This document shows, piece by piece, positions 1-6,293 of a stretch of 13,954 nucleotides of DNA. A model generated the notes under the pieces. The model was not told the DNA's origin. It saw nothing but the letters and a program-made list of their open reading frames with translations, and did not search any database. The position numbers and the translations under genes were made by a program. Source of the stretch: a virus (taxonomy: Duplodnaviria > Heunggongvirae > Uroviricota > Caudoviricetes). The stretch is taken from positions 1-13,954 of IMG/VR virus record IMGVR_UViG_2778261136_000001; one strand, 5' to 3'. Each line of letters opens with the position of its first letter. Position 1 is the stretch's first letter.

Positions 1-141
1 CAGTTGCTGGACAGGGTTTCCCCGTCTCAGTGGGCGGCAATAGGCGTGCTGGGGAGTCTGCTGTTTGGTCTGCTGACGTACCTGACGAACCTGTATTTCA
101 AAATCAGAGAGGACCGGCGTAAGGCGGCGCGGGGAGAGTAA
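1..141 (+). CDS. S: Holin, C-terminal fragment (phage 21 S21 pinholin-like); 5' end lies outside the window
   Basis: Frame 1 is open from base 1 to TAA at 139-141. It translates to ...[40 protein letters not shown]: a hydrophobic transmembrane stretch followed by a charged C-terminal tail. From memory this closely matches the C-terminus of the phage 21 pinholin. It sits 4 nt upstream of the endolysin start. Confidence 0.7.
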
Positions 142-145
142 GCTG

Positions 146-679
146 ATGAGCCGGAAATTCCGCTATGGTTTATCAGCTGTCGTTCTGGCGCTGATTGCCG
201 CAGGGGCTTCTGCGCCTGAAATCCTCGACCAGTTTCTTGACGAAAAAGAAGGTAACCACACTACGGCATACCGTGATGGTGCGGGTATCTGGACCATCTG
301 CCGTGGAGCCACCCGGGTGGATGGTAAGCCTGTTATTCCTAGCATGAAGCTGTCGAAGGGGAAATGCGACCAGGTTAACGCCATTGAGCGTGATAAGGCG
401 CTGGCATGGGTGGCGAAAAACATCAAAGTGCCACTGACTGAACCCCAGAAAGCGGGTATTGCGTCATTCTGTCCTTACAACATTGGCCCGGGTAAGTGTT
501 TCAGCTCAACGTTTTACCGGAAACTGAACGCCGGAGACCGTAAAGGCGCATGTGCTGAAATTCGTCGCTGGATATATGACGGTGGTCAGGACTGCCGTAT
601 TCGTTCAAACAACTGTTACGGTCAGGTATCCCGTCGTGACCAGGAGAGCGCGCTGGCGTGCTGGGGTATCGACAGGTAG
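146..679 (+). CDS. R: SAR endolysin (T4-type lysozyme / muramidase, phage 21 R-like)
   Basis: 177-aa ORF with SD GGGGAGAG at 131-138. N-terminus MSRKFRYGLSAVVLALIAAGASAPE is a weakly hydrophobic Gly/Ala-rich signal-anchor-release segment. It is followed by the lysozyme catalytic arrangement E...(8)...D...(5)...T in ...KEGNHTTAYRDGAGIWTICRG. Position immediately after a holin gene. Confidence 0.9.
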   Translation: MSRKFRYGLSAVVLALIAAGASAPEILDQFLDEKEGNHTTAYRDGAGIWTICRGATRVDGKPVIPSMKLSKGKCDQVNAIERDKALAWVAKNIKVPLTEPQKAGIASFCPYNIGPGKCFSSTFYRKLNAGDRKGACAEIRRWIYDGGQDCRIRSNNCYGQVSRRDQESALACWGIDR

Positions 680-814
680 CAGAATATTTTGCTGAAAAAT
701 GACGCTTGCTCACGCGGGCTGATAACACGAAATCCTGCGAACTGGCAAAATGCAAGTGAATAAAGTCAGGAAGATTGTTTCACGCAGAGGCACCGTAATG
801 GTGTCTTTGTCATT

Positions 815-952
815 TCTGCGCTTCGCACAAGCGTAAATAAACCAAAGAACCTTTCAGGATGAGCCCTGGTGGATAACCGGCAGTGGTCTGGTTAACCCTC
901 TTTGGGCTGGTTATTCCTGTGCGCAGGGTTCATCACTAAAAGGAAATAACCG
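815..952 (+). promoter_or_regulatory. Conserved 5' leader element, copy 1 (paralog of 2185..2318), upstream of the antirepressor-like gene
   Basis: Shares with copy 2 a GC hairpin (819-833, CGCTT-CGCAC-AAGCG), a 5' box AGAACCTTTCAGGATGA (846-862), a 3' box GGTTCATCACTAAAAGG (927-943) containing the SD, and the same 9-nt SD-to-ATG spacing with ATGAAT start context. The ~65-nt core between the boxes diverges. Confidence 0.6.
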
Positions 953-1522
953 ATGAATATGATGACCGTGCCGTTTCACGGCGATTCTCTTTATGTGGTT
1001 AACCATAACGGTGAGCCATACGTTCCCATGAAACCTGTCGTTGCGGGGATGGGGCTGGCCTGGCAATCACAGTTGGCTAAGTTAAGACAGCGTTTTGTGT
1101 CAACTATAACGGAAATCGTTATGGTTGCTGAGGATGGGAAACGACGCAATATGGTGTCCCTGCCACTTCGAAAACTTGCAGGCTGGTTACAAACCATCAA
1201 TCCCAACAAAGTAAAACCCGAAATCCGCGACAAGGTAATCCAGTATCAGGAAGAGTGCGACGATGTTCTCTATGAATACTGGACGAAGGGTTTTGTCGTT
1301 AATCCTCGTCAAATGAGCGTGATGGAAGAACTCAATCAGGCCTGCGCTGACATGAAACGGGATAAAAACATTGCCAGTGTGTTTTCTACCGGGCTGAATG
1401 AGTGGAAACAGGTTAAAGCCGCGCATGTATCAAAAATCCGCACATTGATAAACGAAGCGAATCTGCTGATTGATTTTGTCCTGGCTGATACAGGCAAAGG
1501 GAAAATAACAAAGGCGGATTGA
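953..1522 (+). CDS. Antirepressor-like phage regulatory protein (moron inserted between R and Rz)
   Basis: 189-aa ORF with SD AAAAGG 9 nt upstream. N-terminal region MNMMTVPFHGDSLYVVNHNGEPYVPMKPVVAGMGLAWQSQLAKL... resembles, from memory, the N-terminal domain family of P22-type antirepressors found in enterobacterial prophages. The function is not established from sequence alone. Confidence 0.55.
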   Translation: MNMMTVPFHGDSLYVVNHNGEPYVPMKPVVAGMGLAWQSQLAKLRQRFVSTITEIVMVAEDGKRRNMVSLPLRKLAGWLQTINPNKVKPEIRDKVIQYQEECDDVLYEYWTKGFVVNPRQMSVMEELNQACADMKRDKNIASVFSTGLNEWKQVKAAHVSKIRTLINEANLLIDFVLADTGKGKITKAD

Positions 1523-1536
1523 TGGAGTGGTGGCTA

Positions 1537-1671
1537 ATGATATCGGATAAACTCATAACGCTGGCGAAGATTCTCTGTGTAATCGTCGGCATTTCATTTT
1601 TAGTCATGCTGGTTGCCATTTTCTTTTCCACCGCCTGGAGAGTCCTGACGTTATCGGGACTGGTGGGGTGA
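1537..1671 (+). CDS. Small hydrophobic protein (44 aa, predicted single transmembrane helix); not in the supplied ORF track
   Basis: ATG at 1537 with GGAG at 1524-1527, TGA at 1669-1671. Translation MISDKLITLAKILCVIVGISFLVMLVAIFFSTAWRVLTLSGLVG is almost entirely one hydrophobic helix. It fills the gap between the ant-like gene and Rz with no wasted sequence. Coding status is unproven. Confidence 0.35.
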   Translation: MISDKLITLAKILCVIVGISFLVMLVAIFFSTAWRVLTLSGLVG

Positions 1672-1678
1672 AAGAGAG

Positions 1679-2116
1679 ATGAACCGTGTTCTGTGTGTGG
1701 TGATTATTGTCCTGGCGGTTGGCTGTGGTGCGCTGTGGCTGGCAACAAACCATTACCGTGACAACGCGCTCACCTACAAAGCGCAGCGCGATAAAGCCAC
1801 ATCCATCATCGCAGATATGCAGAAGCGGCAACGTGATGTAGCAGAACTTGACGCCAGATACACAAAGGAGCTTGCTGATGCTAATGCGACTATCGAAAGT
1901 CTCCGTGCTGATGTTTCTGCTGGGCGTAAGCGCCTGCAAGTCGCCGCCACCTGTGCAAAGTCAACGACCGGAGCCAGCAGCATGGGCGATGGAGAAAGCC
2001 CAGGACTTACAGCAGATGCTGAACTCAATTATTACCGTCTCAGAAGTGGAATCGACAAGATAACCGCGCAGGTTAACTACCTGCAGGAATACATCAGGAC
2101 GCAATGCCTGAAATAA
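1679..2116 (+). CDS. Rz: Rz inner-membrane spanin (i-spanin)
   Basis: 145-aa ORF with N-terminal TM segment and the motif ATNHYRDNALTYKAQRDK...DARYTKELADA...DVSAGRKRL, which closely parallels lambda Rz (VNHYRDNAITYKAQRDK...AKYTKELADA...DVAAGRRRL) as I recall it. Coiled-coil periplasmic domain. It contains the embedded Rz1 frame. Confidence 0.9.
   Translation: MNRVLCVVIIVLAVGCGALWLATNHYRDNALTYKAQRDKATSIIADMQKRQRDVAELDARYTKELADANATIESLRADVSAGRKRLQVAATCAKSTTGASSMGDGESPGLTADAELNYYRLRSGIDKITAQVNYLQEYIRTQCLK
1878..2063 (+). CDS. Rz1: Rz1 outer-membrane lipoprotein spanin (o-spanin), embedded in the +1 frame of Rz
   Basis: Perfect SD AAGGAG at 1865-1870, 7 nt before ATG 1878. N-terminus MLMRLSKVSVLMFLLGVSAC is a signal peptide ending in a lipobox (VSAC), followed by the Pro-rich mature region KSPPPVQSQRPEP. 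It lies entirely inside Rz in a different frame. The track ORF 1848..2063 is the same frame with an upstream start. Confidence 0.8.
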   Translation: MLMRLSKVSVLMFLLGVSACKSPPPVQSQRPEPAAWAMEKAQDLQQMLNSIITVSEVESTR

Positions 2117-2148
2117 TTTTTTTGCAAATCACAAAGTCCATTTAATGA

Positions 2149-2172
2149 GCCCCGCGATGCGGGGCTTTTTTA
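2149..2172 (+). terminator. Rho-independent terminator after Rz/Rz1
   Basis: Perfect 7-bp GC stem GCCCCGC (2149-2155) / GCGGGGC (2159-2165) with a short loop, followed by TTTTTTAT. Confidence 0.7.
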
Positions 2173-2184
2173 TGTACGCAGTAA

Positions 2185-2318
2185 ACGCGCTTCACACGCG
2201 CGACTTATGAACACAGAACCTTTCAGGATGACCCTTGAGGATGCCGGTTTGGTGATCGGTGCCTTTCTGTGGGCCGGAATCCTGTGTGACAAGGTTCATC
2301 ACTAAAAGGTGTGCACTG
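2185..2318 (+). promoter_or_regulatory. Conserved 5' leader element, copy 2 (paralog of 815..952), upstream of the Rha-family gene
   Basis: Hairpin CGCGC-TTCACAC-GCGCG at 2186-2202, 5' box AGAACCTTTCAGGATGA at 2215-2231, 3' box GGTTCATCACTAAAAGG at 2293-2309, then 9 nt to ATGAAT at 2319. It begins about 13 nt after the Rz terminator. Confidence 0.6.
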
Positions 2319-2861
2319 ATGAATTATCCAACTATCGTTAACGGCATCGATTTTCGAGATCTGATTTTTGTGGCAAACAACGATCCGGTTACAGATTCTT
2401 TTATGGTGGCAAAAGCATTTGGAAAGCTGCCGAAGAACGTAGTTCGTGACATTGAACGAACCATAGAAGCTTGCCCTCCTGAGTTTGATACAAAGCTCAA
2501 CTTTGAGCTTTGCTATAAAAACAATGAGTTACAGAATGGTAAGCCGCAAAAATTCTACCGTCTCCGCAAGGATGGGTTGATGCTTTTGGTTATGTCCTAC
2601 ACCAAAAAAGAAGCAATGCGTATCAAAATTGCTTACATCAACGCATTTAACTGGATGTACGCCATGCTTCAGGTTGGTCATCGTCAATTTGAAGAAGAGA
2701 GAAATGCCGTAATGCTGGAGTACATGAAAGAGAAGGATGTTGCCAGCATGTCAGGTCGCCTGCTAAATCGCTGGGGCAAAATTAAGAAGCCACAGCTGCT
2801 GGCTAGAATTGAACGCCTTGAACAGCACGGGCAAACCGTAATCCCCGGACTCATCAATTAA
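2319..2861 (+). CDS. Rha-family phage regulatory protein
   Basis: The track ORF 2259..2861 starts at GTG and reads through the leader. The likely true start is ATG 2319 (MNYPTIVNG...) with SD AAAAGG at 2304-2309. The region ...NDPVTDSFMVAKAFGKLPKNVVRDIERTIE...KFYRLRKDGLMLLVMSYTKKEAMRIKIAYINAFNWM matches my memory of the Rha regulatory protein family (HTH-like N-terminal domain). Confidence 0.7.
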   Translation: MNYPTIVNGIDFRDLIFVANNDPVTDSFMVAKAFGKLPKNVVRDIERTIEACPPEFDTKLNFELCYKNNELQNGKPQKFYRLRKDGLMLLVMSYTKKEAMRIKIAYINAFNWMYAMLQVGHRQFEEERNAVMLEYMKEKDVASMSGRLLNRWGKIKKPQLLARIERLEQHGQTVIPGLIN

Positions 2862-3019
2862 CGGCAGTACCGCGAAACAACCCAAGCCAGAAAGTGGGGA
2901 AATAACACTGGCAGCCACTGAAAGATGAACCTCCTGCCTTATGGCAAAAAAGATTCTTTGTGGTGGCGGACTGATGGAAAGACATCCTAATCAAGCAACC
3001 ACTCCACAGGGTCATAATT

Positions 3020-3400
3020 ATGAACGACCAGCAAATCGAAAAAGAAATCGTTGAGAAAGGCAAAACGGCACCGCGAATCACCCAGCAGCACATCGAAGAC
3101 GTGATTAAAAGCGAGCATTACTTTACTGCTTATGATGGACGAAATGGTGCCATTTCCAGCAACGAATATTGTGGCAGGGAAAAACCAGAAGAAGGAGATC
3201 GTGATTTATCACCATTGAAGTTGCTCACTTTCTGCGTACTGGTGCTGAAGAATGGCTTCACTGTCACCGGAGAGAGTGCCTGTGCAAGCCCGGAAAACTT
3301 TGATGCAGAAATTGGTCGGAAGATTGCCCGGCAGAATGCTGTAAACAAAATCTGGATGCTCGAAGGTTACTTGCTGAAGCAGAAGCTAAGCGAACAGTAG
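3020..3400 (+). CDS. Small conserved phage protein of unknown function (resembles the family I recall as N4 gp49 / Sf6 gp66-like)
   Basis: 126-aa ORF. The C-terminal part LTFCVLVLKNGFTVTGESACASPENFDAEIGRKIARQNAVNKIWMLEGYLLKQ matches my recollection of a widespread small phage protein family often found near terminase genes. The start codon has a weak SD, so the exact start is uncertain. Confidence 0.5.
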   Translation: MNDQQIEKEIVEKGKTAPRITQQHIEDVIKSEHYFTAYDGRNGAISSNEYCGREKPEEGDRDLSPLKLLTFCVLVLKNGFTVTGESACASPENFDAEIGRKIARQNAVNKIWMLEGYLLKQKLSEQ

Positions 3401-3799
3401 TTATTACAAAAGCCATTCCCTACAGAGTGGCTTTGATAATGGCTTATACCCTACACGGGATAACTTAATTGATATCCTTTTTAACGGATAAAGGCATTTC
3501 AGCCTGACATAGCCATGCGCCGCATCGTCGCCGTATTCCCGCATTAACAGAGACCGCAGCCACCTTATCTGCGTGAGTGTGCGGGGATAATCAAAAACGA
3601 TGCACACCGGGTTTTCTCATTTTTCACGAGATGGGAGCGATTTCCCGCGAAGCCGCCTGTCCGGTGCGGTGGTGGAAGAAACCGGATAAAACAACCGCAT
3701 TGTGCAAATATCGATCAAATATGGTGCTGCTGTGTGAAATCTGAAAAATCACAGCGGTCATTATGCATCAGTTTTTAACACAGGACGTCAGAACGTGAC

Positions 3800-4606
3800 A
3801 TGGCAAAGCTGGACTGGAAAAAGCTGGAGCAGGCATTCCGACGCGAACATGCCGAAACGGGAATAACATTACTGGACTGGTGCCGGAAGAAAAAGATTAA
3901 TTACAACACCGCCAGAACCCGTATAAAAATGGGCAAAATCGATCATGAAATTGATCATAAAACCGATCATGAAATCGATCATGACATCTTAGATGAAGAA
4001 CCCTGCAATGACGCGGGTTCCGGCGATGAAAAATGCGCAAAAAACTCTGAAAAAAACTGCGCAAATTCGGCAGAAACGAAACGGATTCGTGGTTCCCGAC
4101 TTTTACCTCCTTCAAACGCTTTTTCTCAGCGCAACACCCACGCCGTAAGACACCGTGGATATGCGAAGTATCTTGAGGCAGATAACCTCATGGATGATGC
4201 TTCCGACATGGTGCTGTTCGATGAACTGGTGTTCACCCGGGCCCGCGCACTTTCAGTAACTAAGGCACTTAAAGGGATGTTCGCCGACCTGGAAGAGGCA
4301 ACTGACGTGGAAACCCGTGTTGCTCTTTACGACAAAATACTCAAAGCTGAACAGGCCCTTGACCGGAATATTGCCCGTATCGAGTCAATTGAACGCTCAT
4401 TGCTGACGCTGGACGTCCTGGCTGAGACAGCACCAAAACTTCGTGCTGACCGGGAAAGAATCAACGCCGCCAGAGATAAACTCAGAGCTGAAACCGATAT
4501 TCTGACCAGCCAGCGTCGGGGCGTTGTTACGCCTGTCAGTGACATCGTGTCATCGCTGCATGAAATGAGTAATTCGGGGAGACTGGATGACATTCCGGAA
4601 GAATGA
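3800..4606 (+). CDS. terS: Terminase small subunit (putative)
   Basis: 268-aa ORF immediately upstream of, and overlapping by 20 nt, the large terminase gene. The N-terminus (KLEQAFRREHAETGITLLDWCRKKKINYNTARTRIKMGK) looks like a helix-turn-helix DNA-binding region, and the C-terminal half is predicted coiled-coil/oligomerisation. It contains an internal GATC-bearing tandem repeat. Assignment is by position and architecture. Confidence 0.65.
   Translation: MAKLDWKKLEQAFRREHAETGITLLDWCRKKKINYNTARTRIKMGKIDHEIDHKTDHEIDHDILDEEPCNDAGSGDEKCAKNSEKNCANSAETKRIRGSRLLPPSNAFSQRNTHAVRHRGYAKYLEADNLMDDASDMVLFDELVFTRARALSVTKALKGMFADLEEATDVETRVALYDKILKAEQALDRNIARIESIERSLLTLDVLAETAPKLRADRERINAARDKLRAETDILTSQRRGVVTPVSDIVSSLHEMSNSGRLDDIPEE
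3938..3985 (+). repeat. Four tandem 12-bp repeats (ATCGATCATGAA-like), each carrying a GATC, inside terS
   Basis: Units ATCGATCATGAA / ATTGATCATAAA / ACCGATCATGAA / ATCGATCATGAC encode IDHE-IDHK-TDHE-IDHD. GATC occurs at 3941, 3953, 3965 and 3977, exactly 12 bp apart. Confidence 0.9.
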
Positions 4607-6293
4607 ACCGCGATGTGATGAGCCGTCAGAAATGACCGAGGCTGAACAACGTCTGTTCATCATGACTAAACTGAGCAATCCCTGGTGGCGGCTCAATCAT
4701 CTCTACAAAATACAGAACGAAAAAGGTGAACTGGTCACCTTCAGAATGCGACCGGCGCAGCGCCAGTTATTCCGGAGCATGCACAATAAAAATATTATCC
4801 TGAAAGCGCGCCAGCTGGGATTTTCCACAGCCATTGATATTTATCTTCTCGACCAGGCATTATTCATTCCGCATCTCAAATGCGGGATCGTCGCTCAGGA
4901 TAAACAGGCTGCCAGTGAAATTTTCCGCACAAAAATTGCTGTACCGTTTGATCATCTCCCTGACTGGCTGAGAGCCTCATTCACCATCGTTGAACGTCGT
5001 AGCGGTGCCAGCGGTGGCTATATCCTGTTTGGTCACGGCTCGAGTATCCAGGTGGCAACCTCATTCCGTTCAGGTACGGTGCAGCGCCTGCATATCTCAG
5101 AGCACGGCAAAATTTGCGCGAAATATCCGGCTAAGGCGAAAGAACTGCGAACCGGTACGCTTAATGCCGTCTCTGATGAATGCATTATTTTTGATGAGTC
5201 CACAGCTGAAGGCGTGGGTGGTGATTTTTACGAGATGAGTAACCGAGCACAGGAGATCACTGCATCAGGCTTATCGTTGACGGCACAGGATTATAAATTC
5301 CATTTTTACGCCTGGTGGCAGGATCCTAAATACAGCGCCCGAGTGCCGGAAAGCGGGCTGAAGCTGTCACGGGAAAAAATGACGTATTTTTCTGCGGTTG
5401 AGAAGGCAATGAACATCACGCTTACTGATGAACAGAAGCAGTGGTACATCAATAAGGAAACTGAACAGCGTGAGGAAATGAAGCAGGAGTTTCCCTCAAC
5501 GCCACAGGAGGCGTTTCTGACGTCCGGACGACGTGTGTTCAGTGCCGAAAGTACGTTGCAGGCAGAATCATTCTGTTCGCCACCGCTGATTGTTTATGAC
5601 ATTGAACCTGTTACAGGAAGGAAGACTAAAGCGCAGTCTCTGCGTGACGGGAATAAAGCCGAACAGCTCCGGACGCTGATGAATTATCTGCTGGTCTGGG
5701 AGCTACCGGATCCAGATGAAGAGTATGTCTGCGGAGCGGATATTGCTGAGGGGCTTGAGCACGGGGACCGCTCATCGCTGGATATCATCAGATGCAGTAA
5801 TGGTGAGCAGGTGGCCCACTGGTTTGGTCATCTTGATGCGGAGCTTTTTGCTCATCTCATTGCGCAGGTCTGTCGTATGTACAACAACGCGTTTGTGGGG
5901 CCGGAGCGTAACAATCACGGACATGCCGTTATTCTGAAACTCAGGGAGCTCTATCCGACGCGTTATATCTACAACGAACAGCACCTTGATCAGGCATATG
6001 ATGACGATACGCCCCGCCTTGGCTGGCTGACAACCCGTCAGAGCAAACCTGTTCTGACCGAAGGAATGAAAACGCTCCTGAATAATGGAATATCAGGGAT
6101 CCGCTGGTCAGGCACATTATCGGAAATGAACACCTACGTTTATGACGCGAAAGGCTCCATGAATGCACAGGAAGGCTGTTTTGATGATCAACTCATGAGC
6201 TACATGATTGCCCAGGAGATGCGCGCCAGAATGCCTGTGAGGGTAAAACAGAAAACGGATAAACGCAGAACTACACACTGGATGGCTCACTGA
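4587..6293 (+). CDS. terL: Terminase large subunit
   Basis: 568-aa ORF with SD GGGAGA at 4574-4579. The N-terminal ATPase region carries a deviant Walker A-like KARQLGFST, and the acidic C-terminal half fits a nuclease domain. It is followed by the portal gene with an ATGA stop/start overlap. An alternative start at ATG 4632 is possible. Confidence 0.85.
   Translation: MTFRKNEPRCDEPSEMTEAEQRLFIMTKLSNPWWRLNHLYKIQNEKGELVTFRMRPAQRQLFRSMHNKNIILKARQLGFSTAIDIYLLDQALFIPHLKCGIVAQDKQAASEIFRTKIAVPFDHLPDWLRASFTIVERRSGASGGYILFGHGSSIQVATSFRSGTVQRLHISEHGKICAKYPAKAKELRTGTLNAVSDECIIFDESTAEGVGGDFYEMSNRAQEITASGLSLTAQDYKFHFYAWWQDPKYSARVPESGLKLSREKMTYFSAVEKAMNITLTDEQKQWYINKETEQREEMKQEFPSTPQEAFLTSGRRVFSAESTLQAESFCSPPLIVYDIEPVTGRKTKAQSLRDGNKAEQLRTLMNYLLVWELPDPDEEYVCGADIAEGLEHGDRSSLDIIRCSNGEQVAHWFGHLDAELFAHLIAQVCRMYNNAFVGPERNNHGHAVILKLRELYPTRYIYNEQHLDQAYDDDTPRLGWLTTRQSKPVLTEGMKTLLNNGISGIRWSGTLSEMNTYVYDAKGSMNAQEGCFDDQLMSYMIAQEMRARMPVRVKQKTDKRRTTHWMAH

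Follow-up and report, generated by a model that had tools for sequence, protein, structure and literature searches.

A conserved leader RNA with a predicted pseudoknot upstream of Bro-network genes in the lysis region of a 933W-type Escherichia coli prophage

In phages P1 and P7 (c4-icd-ant) and in phage P4 (CI), immunity or leader RNAs are found before antirepressor or Bro genes. Immunity RNAs of the c4/CI/IsrK type that precede such genes have been described (PMC10111431), and in Gifsy-1 the isrK-orf45-anrP locus places a transcribed but translationally silent leader mRNA before an antirepressor-like gene (PMC4825925). The “Bro network” comprises domain-shuffling phage DNA-interactive proteins, recognized from a list of domains (PMC10111431; Iyer et al. 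2002). Most recently, RNA-seq of P22 infection revealed P22F, an 89-nt RNA validated by RT-PCR and reported as “partially overlapping ORF201, no known function” (PMC13397905, June 2026). Here we analyzed a stretch of 13,954 nucleotides (IMG/VR record IMGVR_UViG_2778261136_000001), the whole of which is called the window below. Its positions 1-2116 form the lysis block from the late operon of a lambdoid E. coli prophage of 933W type (Sepvirinae), with an S21-type holin, a signal-anchor-release (SAR) endolysin and the Rz/Rz1 spanins. A Bro-network gene resembling ant of P22 lies between the endolysin gene (R) and Rz, a second one, resembling rha, lies after Rz, and each is preceded by a structured leader of the family to which P22F belongs. 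Our overall reading, to which we assign a probability of about 0.6, is that the region combines a lysis block with portable cassettes made of a leader and a cargo gene, and that the leader regulates its Bro-network cargo.

The leader and the evidence for its fold

The two leaders, before the ant-like gene (about 818-952) and before the rha-like gene (about 2186-2318), are each about 140 nt long and are related, with near-identical ends and divergent middle parts. Both fold as a long rod hairpin in which the basal helix pairs CCUUU with the Shine-Dalgarno (SD) sequence AAAGG, 8-10 nt before the ATG (Table 1). The minimum free energy (MFE) of the rod of copy 1 is -43 to -50 kcal/mol (z=-3.1 to -4.0). 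Copies 1 and 2 scored 88.9 and 130.9 bits, respectively, with a covariance model (R1) that was built from close leader copies and then used to find divergent ones. With a second model (R2), which goes with an alignment of 52 distinct leaders and covers the small upstream hairpin P0 and the rod, leaving the pseudoknot out, the scores were 97.9 and 143.9 bits.

The cassettes share one order: a hairpin or terminator, P0, an A/C-rich linker of 10-15 nt, the rod of ~95 nt and a Bro-network gene, which in copy 1 is joined by a small membrane-protein gene, orf49. A strong intrinsic terminator like the one before copy 2 stands upstream of nearly all leader copies, and the hairpin that occupies this slot in copy 1 was not called a terminator in the consensus scan. 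No sigma-70-like promoter was found by a crude consensus scan of positions 1-2700, the stretches before the two leaders (680-952 and 2117-2318) included, nor was a conserved -10 element seen by eye in alignments upstream of the leaders. The R-Rz insert is a portable, self-contained accessory cassette, not a lysis gene.

The ~32 nt directly after the Rz stop (2117-2148, TTTTTTTGCAAATCACAAAGTCCATTTAATGA) recur near-unchanged in phi80 and many IMG/VR loci, again ahead of the terminator. This segment may be linked to the 3' end of Rz or may be a protein-binding site; a match to integration host factor (IHF) sites, judged by eye, was unconvincing.

The pairing of the rod is maintained across divergent sequences. 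Among 45 leaders with less than 95% mutual identity, 94.2% of the cells were paired (82.4% after shuffling and 38-51% with slid partners), 25 of the 29 pairs had changed on both sides, and the covariation score of 0.381 (0.158 for shuffles) was reached by none of 500 shuffles. When P0 was included, the 52 distinct leaders gave 93.6% paired cells versus 82.1% in shuffled sets, with double changes in 31 of 40 pairs and a covariation score of 0.353 versus 0.144, again reached by none of 500 shuffles. When divergent members were folded one by one by MFE, the same rod appeared, its helices kept by compensation (GAUGA/UCAUC, AAAGU/ACUUU, GGGUGA/UCACC, CCUUG/CAAGG and GCCUG/CAGGC), and the basal helix itself occurs as CCUUU/AAAGG or, in one divergent locus (L139), as CCUUA/UAAGG. 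G-U pairs are abundant and covariance-model scores are 89-134 bits on the forward strand versus 17-23 bits on the reverse strand, which places the structure in the sense RNA. RNAalifold on MAFFT alignments was also tried; the pattern-selected set proved too conserved to inform and the divergent set was misaligned, and these alignments were replaced by covariance-model-guided ones. From these sequence comparisons, a sense-strand RNA structure under selection, including the SD and the pseudoknot, is well supported.

The pseudoknot is predicted from the P0 loop, whose sequence can form Watson-Crick pairs with a conserved bulge of 6 nt in the 3' strand of the rod; loop and bulge covary. An exact complement of the bulge lies inside the P0 loop in 44 of 45 non-redundant leaders. 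When 39 close leaders were aligned by sequence alone with MAFFT, the variable pair 23-119 was GC in 17, AU in 10, UA in 9, GU in one and another combination in two. On the 52-leader alignment the pseudoknot helix, which is not in the model, was 96.2% paired, and four of its six pairs had double changes. In total, more than 10 complementary sequence types would form a pseudoknot of 5-7 bp. Besides the two types of the window (Table 1), loop and bulge read UCUCAC/GUGAGA in 933W and phi80, UCGCAC/GUGCGA in four further loci (L005, L070, L185 and L177), CCGCA/UGCGG in P22, and UGCCC/GGGCA, UUCUCG/CGAGAA and UUCGCG/CGCGAA in L139, L255 and L202, respectively. Three types beyond this earlier set were found in phage APSE (CGCAU/AUGCG and UGUCC/GGACA) and in Proteus (CCGAAA/UUUCGG).

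Distribution of the leader and its cargo

An exact-pattern scan of IMG/VR found the leader at at least 120 loci, with at least 40 distinct cores. The cargo behind it is hypervariable: P22_AR_N, Rha, KilA-N (with or without ORF11CD3 or P63C), ANT, AntA, Bro-N, HNH_3 (with or without AP2) and T5orf172/MUG113 proteins were all found. Both cargo genes of the window carry Bro-network domains (P22_AR_N with ORF11CD3, and pRha with ORF11CD3), as do the KilA-N, ANT, AntA and Bro-N genes of sister cassettes. Prophages of Erwinia, Pantoea, Scandinavium, Shimwellia, Izhakiella, Buttiauxella, Enterobacter, Pectobacterium and Phytobacter have divergent leaders 90-240 nt behind Rz, and the covariance model found the leader in 58 of 79 IMG/VR loci that had been selected solely by a close Rz homologue. 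The leader is also present upstream of rha in P22 and phi80, upstream of ant in 933W, and upstream of an Ant-like gene in APSE and Proteus. Of the type-A leaders, 34 lie behind Rz, 30 behind a SAR endolysin and 45 behind other late genes. Several phages carry at least two leaders per late region, with examples in phi80 (L285, 3400-3526), in L192 (5644-5791) and in APSE (L286, 3463-3611); the L192 copy at 5668-5791 has no recognizable P0 with a matching loop.

In Rfam 15, neither the window leaders nor the P22 leader nor a subtype-B leader matched any family, C4 (RF01695) and isrK (RF01394) included, even at E<=10, apart from terminator- or hairpin-like noise. As far as we searched, in Rfam 15 and a limited set of open-access full texts, the leader has apparently not been described as a family. 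The anti-small-RNAs AgvB/AsxR of enterohaemorrhagic E. coli and the Pas small RNAs (sRNAs) were considered as its identity and ruled out, as they lie upstream of the holin and not in the R-Rz insert.

P22F is the P22 member of the leader family. This RNA, reported at 926-2054 reads per million (PMC13397905), maps to 39550-39638 of NC_002371, which is the rod of the P22 leader, within the covariance-model match at 39496-39642. It ends 6 nt before the ATG at 39644, which opens a 178-aa Rha. The annotated rha starts of P22 (GTG 39575; L284) and phi80 (L285, position 1910) lie within the leader and were probably placed too far upstream; an ATG with the conserved SD lies ~40-70 nt downstream of the annotated start in both phages (39644 in P22, ~1947 in phi80). 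According to PMC4936722, which cites Henthorn & Friedman 1995, Rha of phi80 and P22 harms lytic growth in IHF-deficient hosts, a phenotype that would fit the idea that such cargo needs restraint.

A second RNA of P22 infection also has a counterpart in the window. Positions 2805-2986, comprising the 3' end of the rha-like gene and intergenic sequence, are 94% identical (173/184) to P22G, a 204-nt RNA with no reported function (PMC13397905).

Lysis genes, cargo genes and gene order

All genes of positions 1-2116 are on the plus strand (Table 1). The original prediction, made from the sequence of the window, had proposed a pinholin and SAR endolysin pair separated from its spanins by about 1 kb; Pfam matches bear out the pairing and the gene identities at nearly the positions foreseen, and the gap from R to Rz is 999 nt. 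The holin (4-141; its frame is open from base 1 and the window does not reach its N-terminus) matches PF04971 “P21 holin S” (E=2.8e-21) over profile positions 23-63 of 64, placing it in the phage-21 holin S family across the 45 residues present, and its counterpart is annotated as S or holin in 933W, P13374 and POCJ13. The endolysin gene starts 4 bases after the holin ends. Its best PDB sequence matches are 3hde/3hdf, which we take to be the phage-21 SAR endolysin R21, and 4zpu (RrrD). The protein aligned to 3hde across the catalytic triad, which by inspection is E35-x8-D44-x5-T50, with the same spacing as in the 3hde/3hdf/4zpu relatives. The N-terminal segment (residues ~8-24, GLSAVVLALIAAGASAP) is Gly/Ala-rich and moderately to weakly hydrophobic, with a Kyte-Doolittle maximum of 1.96 in a 17-residue window versus 3.14 for the transmembrane domain (TMD) of orf49. 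With its triad and weakly hydrophobic N-terminal signal anchor, the product of 146-679 has the sequence features of a SAR endolysin, and its release from the membrane is predicted. In a survey of 279 Shiga toxin (Stx) phages, the endolysin families were R21-like SAR endolysins (PMC8136144). Rz1 probably starts at ATG 1878, which gives 61 aa, the same length as Rz1 annotated in 933W. Its lipobox reads ...LLGVSAC, and Rz, with an N-terminal TMD, and Rz1, a lipoprotein in the +1 frame, form an embedded two-component spanin pair.

Table 1 Features of the lysis region and its two leader-cargo cassettes
Feature	Position	Strand	Basis
S21-type (class II, pinholin-family) holin, C-terminal 45-46 codons	1..141	+	PF04971 Phage_holin_2_1
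SAR-type endolysin (T4-lysozyme fold, R21/RrrD-like), 177 aa	146..679	+	PF00959, E=1.5e-25
Hairpin + U-rich tract, in slot of the strong terminator of other copies	784..810	+	MFE fold of 95 nt before the leader
P0 hairpin, leader copy 1; loop CGCACA (824-829) complementary to bulge (918-923)	818..834	+	fold, covariation
Rod hairpin, leader copy 1; CCUUU (850-854) pairs with SD AAAGG (939-943); 3'-side bulge UGUGCG (918-923)	850..943	+	
Ant-like Bro-network gene (P22_AR_N + ORF11CD3), 189 aa	953..1522	+	Pfam, phrog_524
orf49, single-pass membrane protein, 49 aa	1522..1671	+	phrog_4906
Rz i-spanin	1679..2116	+	PF03245, E=4.5e-35; phrog_13
Rz1 o-spanin, +1 frame inside Rz, lipobox Cys	1878..2063	+	PF06085, E=4.2e-20 on ORF 1848-2063
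Intrinsic terminator after Rz, 9-bp GC-rich stem + U-run; 5' edge of second cassette	2147..2174	+	consensus scan
P0 hairpin, leader copy 2; loop UCACAC (2192-2197) complementary to bulge (2284-2289)	2186..2202	+	
Rod hairpin, leader copy 2; bulge GUGUGA (2284-2289); SD AAAGG (2305-2309) paired	2218..2310	+	fold
Rha-like Bro-network gene (Phage_pRha + ORF11CD3), 180 aa, cargo of second cassette	2319..2861	+	Pfam, TIGR02681, phrog_518

The homology of the ant-like gene to the antirepressor family, on which the original prediction depended, is present. Its product matches PF10547 P22_AR_N (E=2.1e-45, residues 5-113), more weakly PF10549 ORF11CD3, and phrog_524 “anti-repressor Ant” (E=1.4e-112), and shares 49% identity with P22 Ant over residues 10-136 of the latter (129 aa aligned). 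The alignment ends at residue 136 of 300, and the full P22 Ant architecture of P22_AR_N plus P22_AR_C was not found, the C-terminal half being absent. There are 2364 relatives across Enterobacterales. The AlphaFold model (predicted local distance difference test score, pLDDT, 72) had no Foldseek match at E<=0.001 and at best a weak resemblance to Ski/Dachshund-type domains (E>0.04). No solved homologue was found by sequence in the PDB; no PADLOC defence-system model matched, and the literature searched contained no published function or experimental work on the gene. Around 680-1680 there are no arc/mnt/sar-type control genes and no Rfam match to such elements. “Antirepressor” is here a name, and the repressor-inactivating activity of the 953-1522 product is putative. 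The “ant” of Phi24B (Fogg et al.), whose similarity is to the C-terminal part of P22 Ant, is probably not the same gene.

The small hydrophobic reading frame behind ant, predicted at 44 aa, is real but is more likely 49 aa long, starting at ATG 1522, so that its start codon and the ant stop codon overlap in TGATG. The match to phrog_4906 covers its full length (E=1.4e-33); it has its hydrophobic core at residues 17-35 (Kyte-Doolittle about 3.1) and corresponds to ORF53 as annotated in P13374. The frame stays open behind ant in all intact relatives, 933W included, and is absent from all 78 Rz loci without ant. As it is kept behind ant and found only together with it, orf49 belongs to the ant cassette and not to the core lysis genes.

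A 126-aa gene of the N4 gp49 / Sf6 gp66 family (PF13876, E=4.1e-35) occupies 3020-3400, after the Rha cassette and before terS (3800-4606).

The gene order itself is known. Megablast of positions 1-3500 against phage records matched 576 of them, the best being an Stx2a-converting phage (95.5% identity over 96% of the query). Phage 933W (AF125520) is annotated as S, R, Ant, Rz, Rz1, bor, with Ant as [quoted passage not shown], while P13374 (the O104:H4 outbreak phage) and Shigella phage POCJ13 have holin, lysozyme, Ant, (ORF53), Rz and a Rha-like regulator, as in the window. The S-R-ant-Rz order, annotated in 933W since 1999 and also in VT2-Sakai, P13374 and POCJ13, is canonical for 933W-like Stx phages and not new. 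Ant families occur in 126 of 279 Stx phages (PMC8136144). The 999-nt insert was found in 1090 of 5426 complete E. coli genomes, at a median of 4 places per carrying genome, and is 100% identical to a copy in strain RM10410. Of the Rz-selected IMG/VR loci, 78 of 79 have neither the Ant-like gene nor orf49, and in the lambda-type relative without the insert that we inspected (L208) R and Rz overlap.

The order of endolysin, leader, Ant-like gene (P22_AR_N-ORF11CD3) and Rz is also present in APSE (Hamiltonella defensa; L286, 1645-4815), where a KilA-N gene is inserted as well, and in a Proteus mirabilis prophage (L288, 1588-3568). Both have other holin and endolysin families, and this recurrence with different lysis genes marks the endolysin/Rz junction as a recurrent landing site for such genes. 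The retention of the order suggests that the R-Rz junction is a hotspot or, alternatively, that there is a functional link with lysis.

A regulator beside lysis genes had been thought unusual. This view did not hold: the arrangement is the long-annotated Stx-phage order, and 58 of the 79 Rz-selected loci carry a Bro-network gene behind the leader. P22 and phi80 likewise have a Bro-network gene in the late operon near the lysis genes, and Bro-network genes (Rha, KilA-N, Ant) in the late operon beside lysis genes are the rule. The companion claim, that the insert is transcribed from the late promoter, is likely given the shared strand, the lack of a sigma-70-like promoter in the scanned positions and the lack of a terminator between ant and Rz. 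However, co-transcription with lysis genes does not imply co-expression, because the conserved structured leader before each such gene pairs with its SD.

Possible function of the leader and comparison with known systems

In the reading that we prefer, Q-antiterminated polymerase from pR' would read through the upstream terminator into the cassette, and in the lysogen that terminator would insulate the cassette. The folded leader would hold translation of the cargo low or conditional, or would mark the mRNA for processing. A potentially phage-harmful Bro-network protein, comparable to Rha in IHF-deficient hosts, would in this way be made late and in small or regulated amounts. Translational gating by the leader is a tentative choice, which we place a little below even odds.

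Several points weigh against this reading. Its weak point is the link from leader to translation, which we infer from sequence. Opening positions -15 to +5 costs 6.0 kcal/mol for ant and 8.6 kcal/mol for rha, within the range of other genes in the window, so that occlusion of the SD by the terminal 5 bp is modest, and the idea of strong SD sequestration was weakened by this unexceptional opening energy. Read-through from the late promoter is deduced from a crude consensus scan that returned no promoter-like sites. P22F does not contain the anti-SD segment and ends between SD and AUG, which is just as compatible with processing or decay. The large covariation counts were obtained on alignments fitted to covariance models and lean towards structure, and the sequence-only covariation test spans one closely related subtype. 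Lastly, the status of the leader as undescribed depends on Rfam 15 and the limited full-text search.

The modest SD occlusion would suit a leader that acts chiefly as an RNA processing or stability element, or as the precursor of a trans-acting P22F-like sRNA whose specificity is set by a loop/bulge code. We consider such a role somewhat unlikely, and leave the remaining probability to other functions. It would account for the accumulation in infection of a discrete 89-nt P22 RNA equal to the rod (PMC13397905) and for the high stability of the rod (-37 to -56 kcal/mol), and the loop-target covariation resembles that of c4/CI/IsrK-type immunity RNAs (mentioned in PMC10111431). Yet the SD/anti-SD pairing is itself kept by compensation, as in the CCUUA/UAAGG helix of L139. 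P0 and its matching bulge occur in cis in 44 of 45 leaders, as expected for an intramolecular contact, although a trans code could show the same. Moreover, by inspection, cross-pairing between the two copies in the window would be possible with one G-U pair, so that they are not orthogonal, and read ends from a size-selected library are weak evidence for processing. A more specific version, in which the P0-loop/bulge pairs serve as a specificity code by which processed P22F-like RNAs recognize leaders of matching type in other cassettes or prophages, is quite unlikely in our estimate. If true, it would mean RNA-level control between prophages over the timing of Bro-network proteins at lysis, in genomes that carry a median of 4 copies of the insert.

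Attention may instead be turned to the cargo. If the Ant-like protein were a genuine antirepressor timed with lysis, its role could lie in prophage cross-talk, superinfection or anti-defence. The P22_AR_N homology and 49% identity to the N-terminal part of P22 Ant speak for this, as do the endolysin-Rz position kept in the distant phages APSE and Proteus and the multiple insert copies (median 4 per carrying E. coli genome), by which targets in trans exist; Gifsy phages have known trans-acting antirepressors (PMC3121763). We nevertheless judge it unlikely, given that the C-terminal half of P22 Ant is lacking and that solved homologues, significant fold matches, PADLOC matches and published functions were not found. 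In addition, Rha, KilA-N, AntA, Bro-N, HNH and T5orf172 proteins are all found in this slot, and with cargo so interchangeable the position does not select for antirepressor activity. The same mixture of a conserved leader with hypervariable cargo at several genomic sites could point to a cassette boundary at the DNA level, either a linker for homologous recombination or a nuclease or recombinase site, with an incidental RNA fold. Some cargo genes are indeed HNH or GIY-YIG-like nucleases, and HNH_3 may mobilize Bro genes (PMC10111431). Compensatory double changes that keep the pairing, abundant G-U pairs, the strong strand asymmetry of the covariance-model score, a long-range loop-bulge covariation that has no rationale in DNA, and the accumulation of P22 leader RNA in vivo together make this very improbable. 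Hardly more credit can be given to a short upstream open reading frame in the leader that is translationally coupled to the cargo, for which orf45 of the Gifsy-1 isrK-orf45-anrP locus is a precedent (PMC4825925). Copy 2 does have an open reading frame (2207-2305, 32 aa) that ends at a UAA inside CACUAAAAGG, and POCJ13 is annotated with a 44-aa frame across the leader (gp44, “hypothetical protein”; L002, 4711-4845). The frame is not conserved between the copies, however: in copy 1 the AUG at 859 opens a frame of 5 codons, and subtype-B leaders have no AUG. Variation in the leader preserves pairs and is not codon-like. The leader-peptide reading was rejected on the lack of frame conservation, and the short frames of 32 and 44 aa are probably annotation artefacts of the RNA element.

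The closest relatives of the locus are the Stx phages 933W, VT2-Sakai, P13374 and POCJ13, which match it in gene content and gene order, are 91-95% identical to it in nucleotide sequence over the parts in common, and have the same leader before ant. 933W differs in having bor after Rz, where the window, P13374 and POCJ13 have the second cassette of leader and Rha; its ant allele also differs from that of the window, and megablast covers just 55% of the query. A further likeness is to immI of P22 (Pant-arc-ant with the antisense sar RNA): the Ant proteins are homologous at the N-terminus, and by the P22 annotation an antirepressor-family gene lies inside the late operon under RNA-level control. 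However, the window lacks arc, mnt, Pant and sar along with the C-terminal half of Ant, and control would come from a cis structure on the sense strand, as opposed to the antisense RNA of P22.

With the c4, CI and isrK systems the leader shares a structured RNA directly upstream of an antirepressor-type gene and, as in immunity RNAs, a loop that is complementary to a downstream site on the same transcript and covaries with it, here the P0 loop and the bulge. In contrast to c4 and isrK, the loop is directed at a bulge ~20 nt before the SD and not at the ribosome-binding site, no upstream reading frame is conserved, the RNA processed in P22 is the long hairpin and not P0, and action of the leader in trans is putative. 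No DNA or protein similarity to the Gifsy-1 isrK-orf45-anrP locus was found.

Morons of lambdoid late operons are reportedly units of promoter, gene and terminator (Juhala et al. 2000). Like them, the window cassette is an accessory gene between conserved late genes that is absent in close relatives. Unlike them, it has no promoter-like site (680-952 or 2117-2318) and no terminator between orf49 and Rz; its terminator is upstream and not downstream, and it carries a conserved structured leader.

The order of the genes adds nothing new, having been annotated for 25 years and occurring in roughly one in five complete E. coli genomes. The value of the comparison lies in a covariation-supported, pseudoknotted leader before Rha, KilA-N, Ant and related genes in P22, phi80, Stx phages and the aphid-symbiont phage APSE, which gives a testable handle on the restraint of widespread Bro-network late genes, the old Rha/IHF phenotype included. 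P22F, reported without structure, pseudoknot, family distribution or link to cargo (PMC13397905), is hereby placed as one member of a large leader family.

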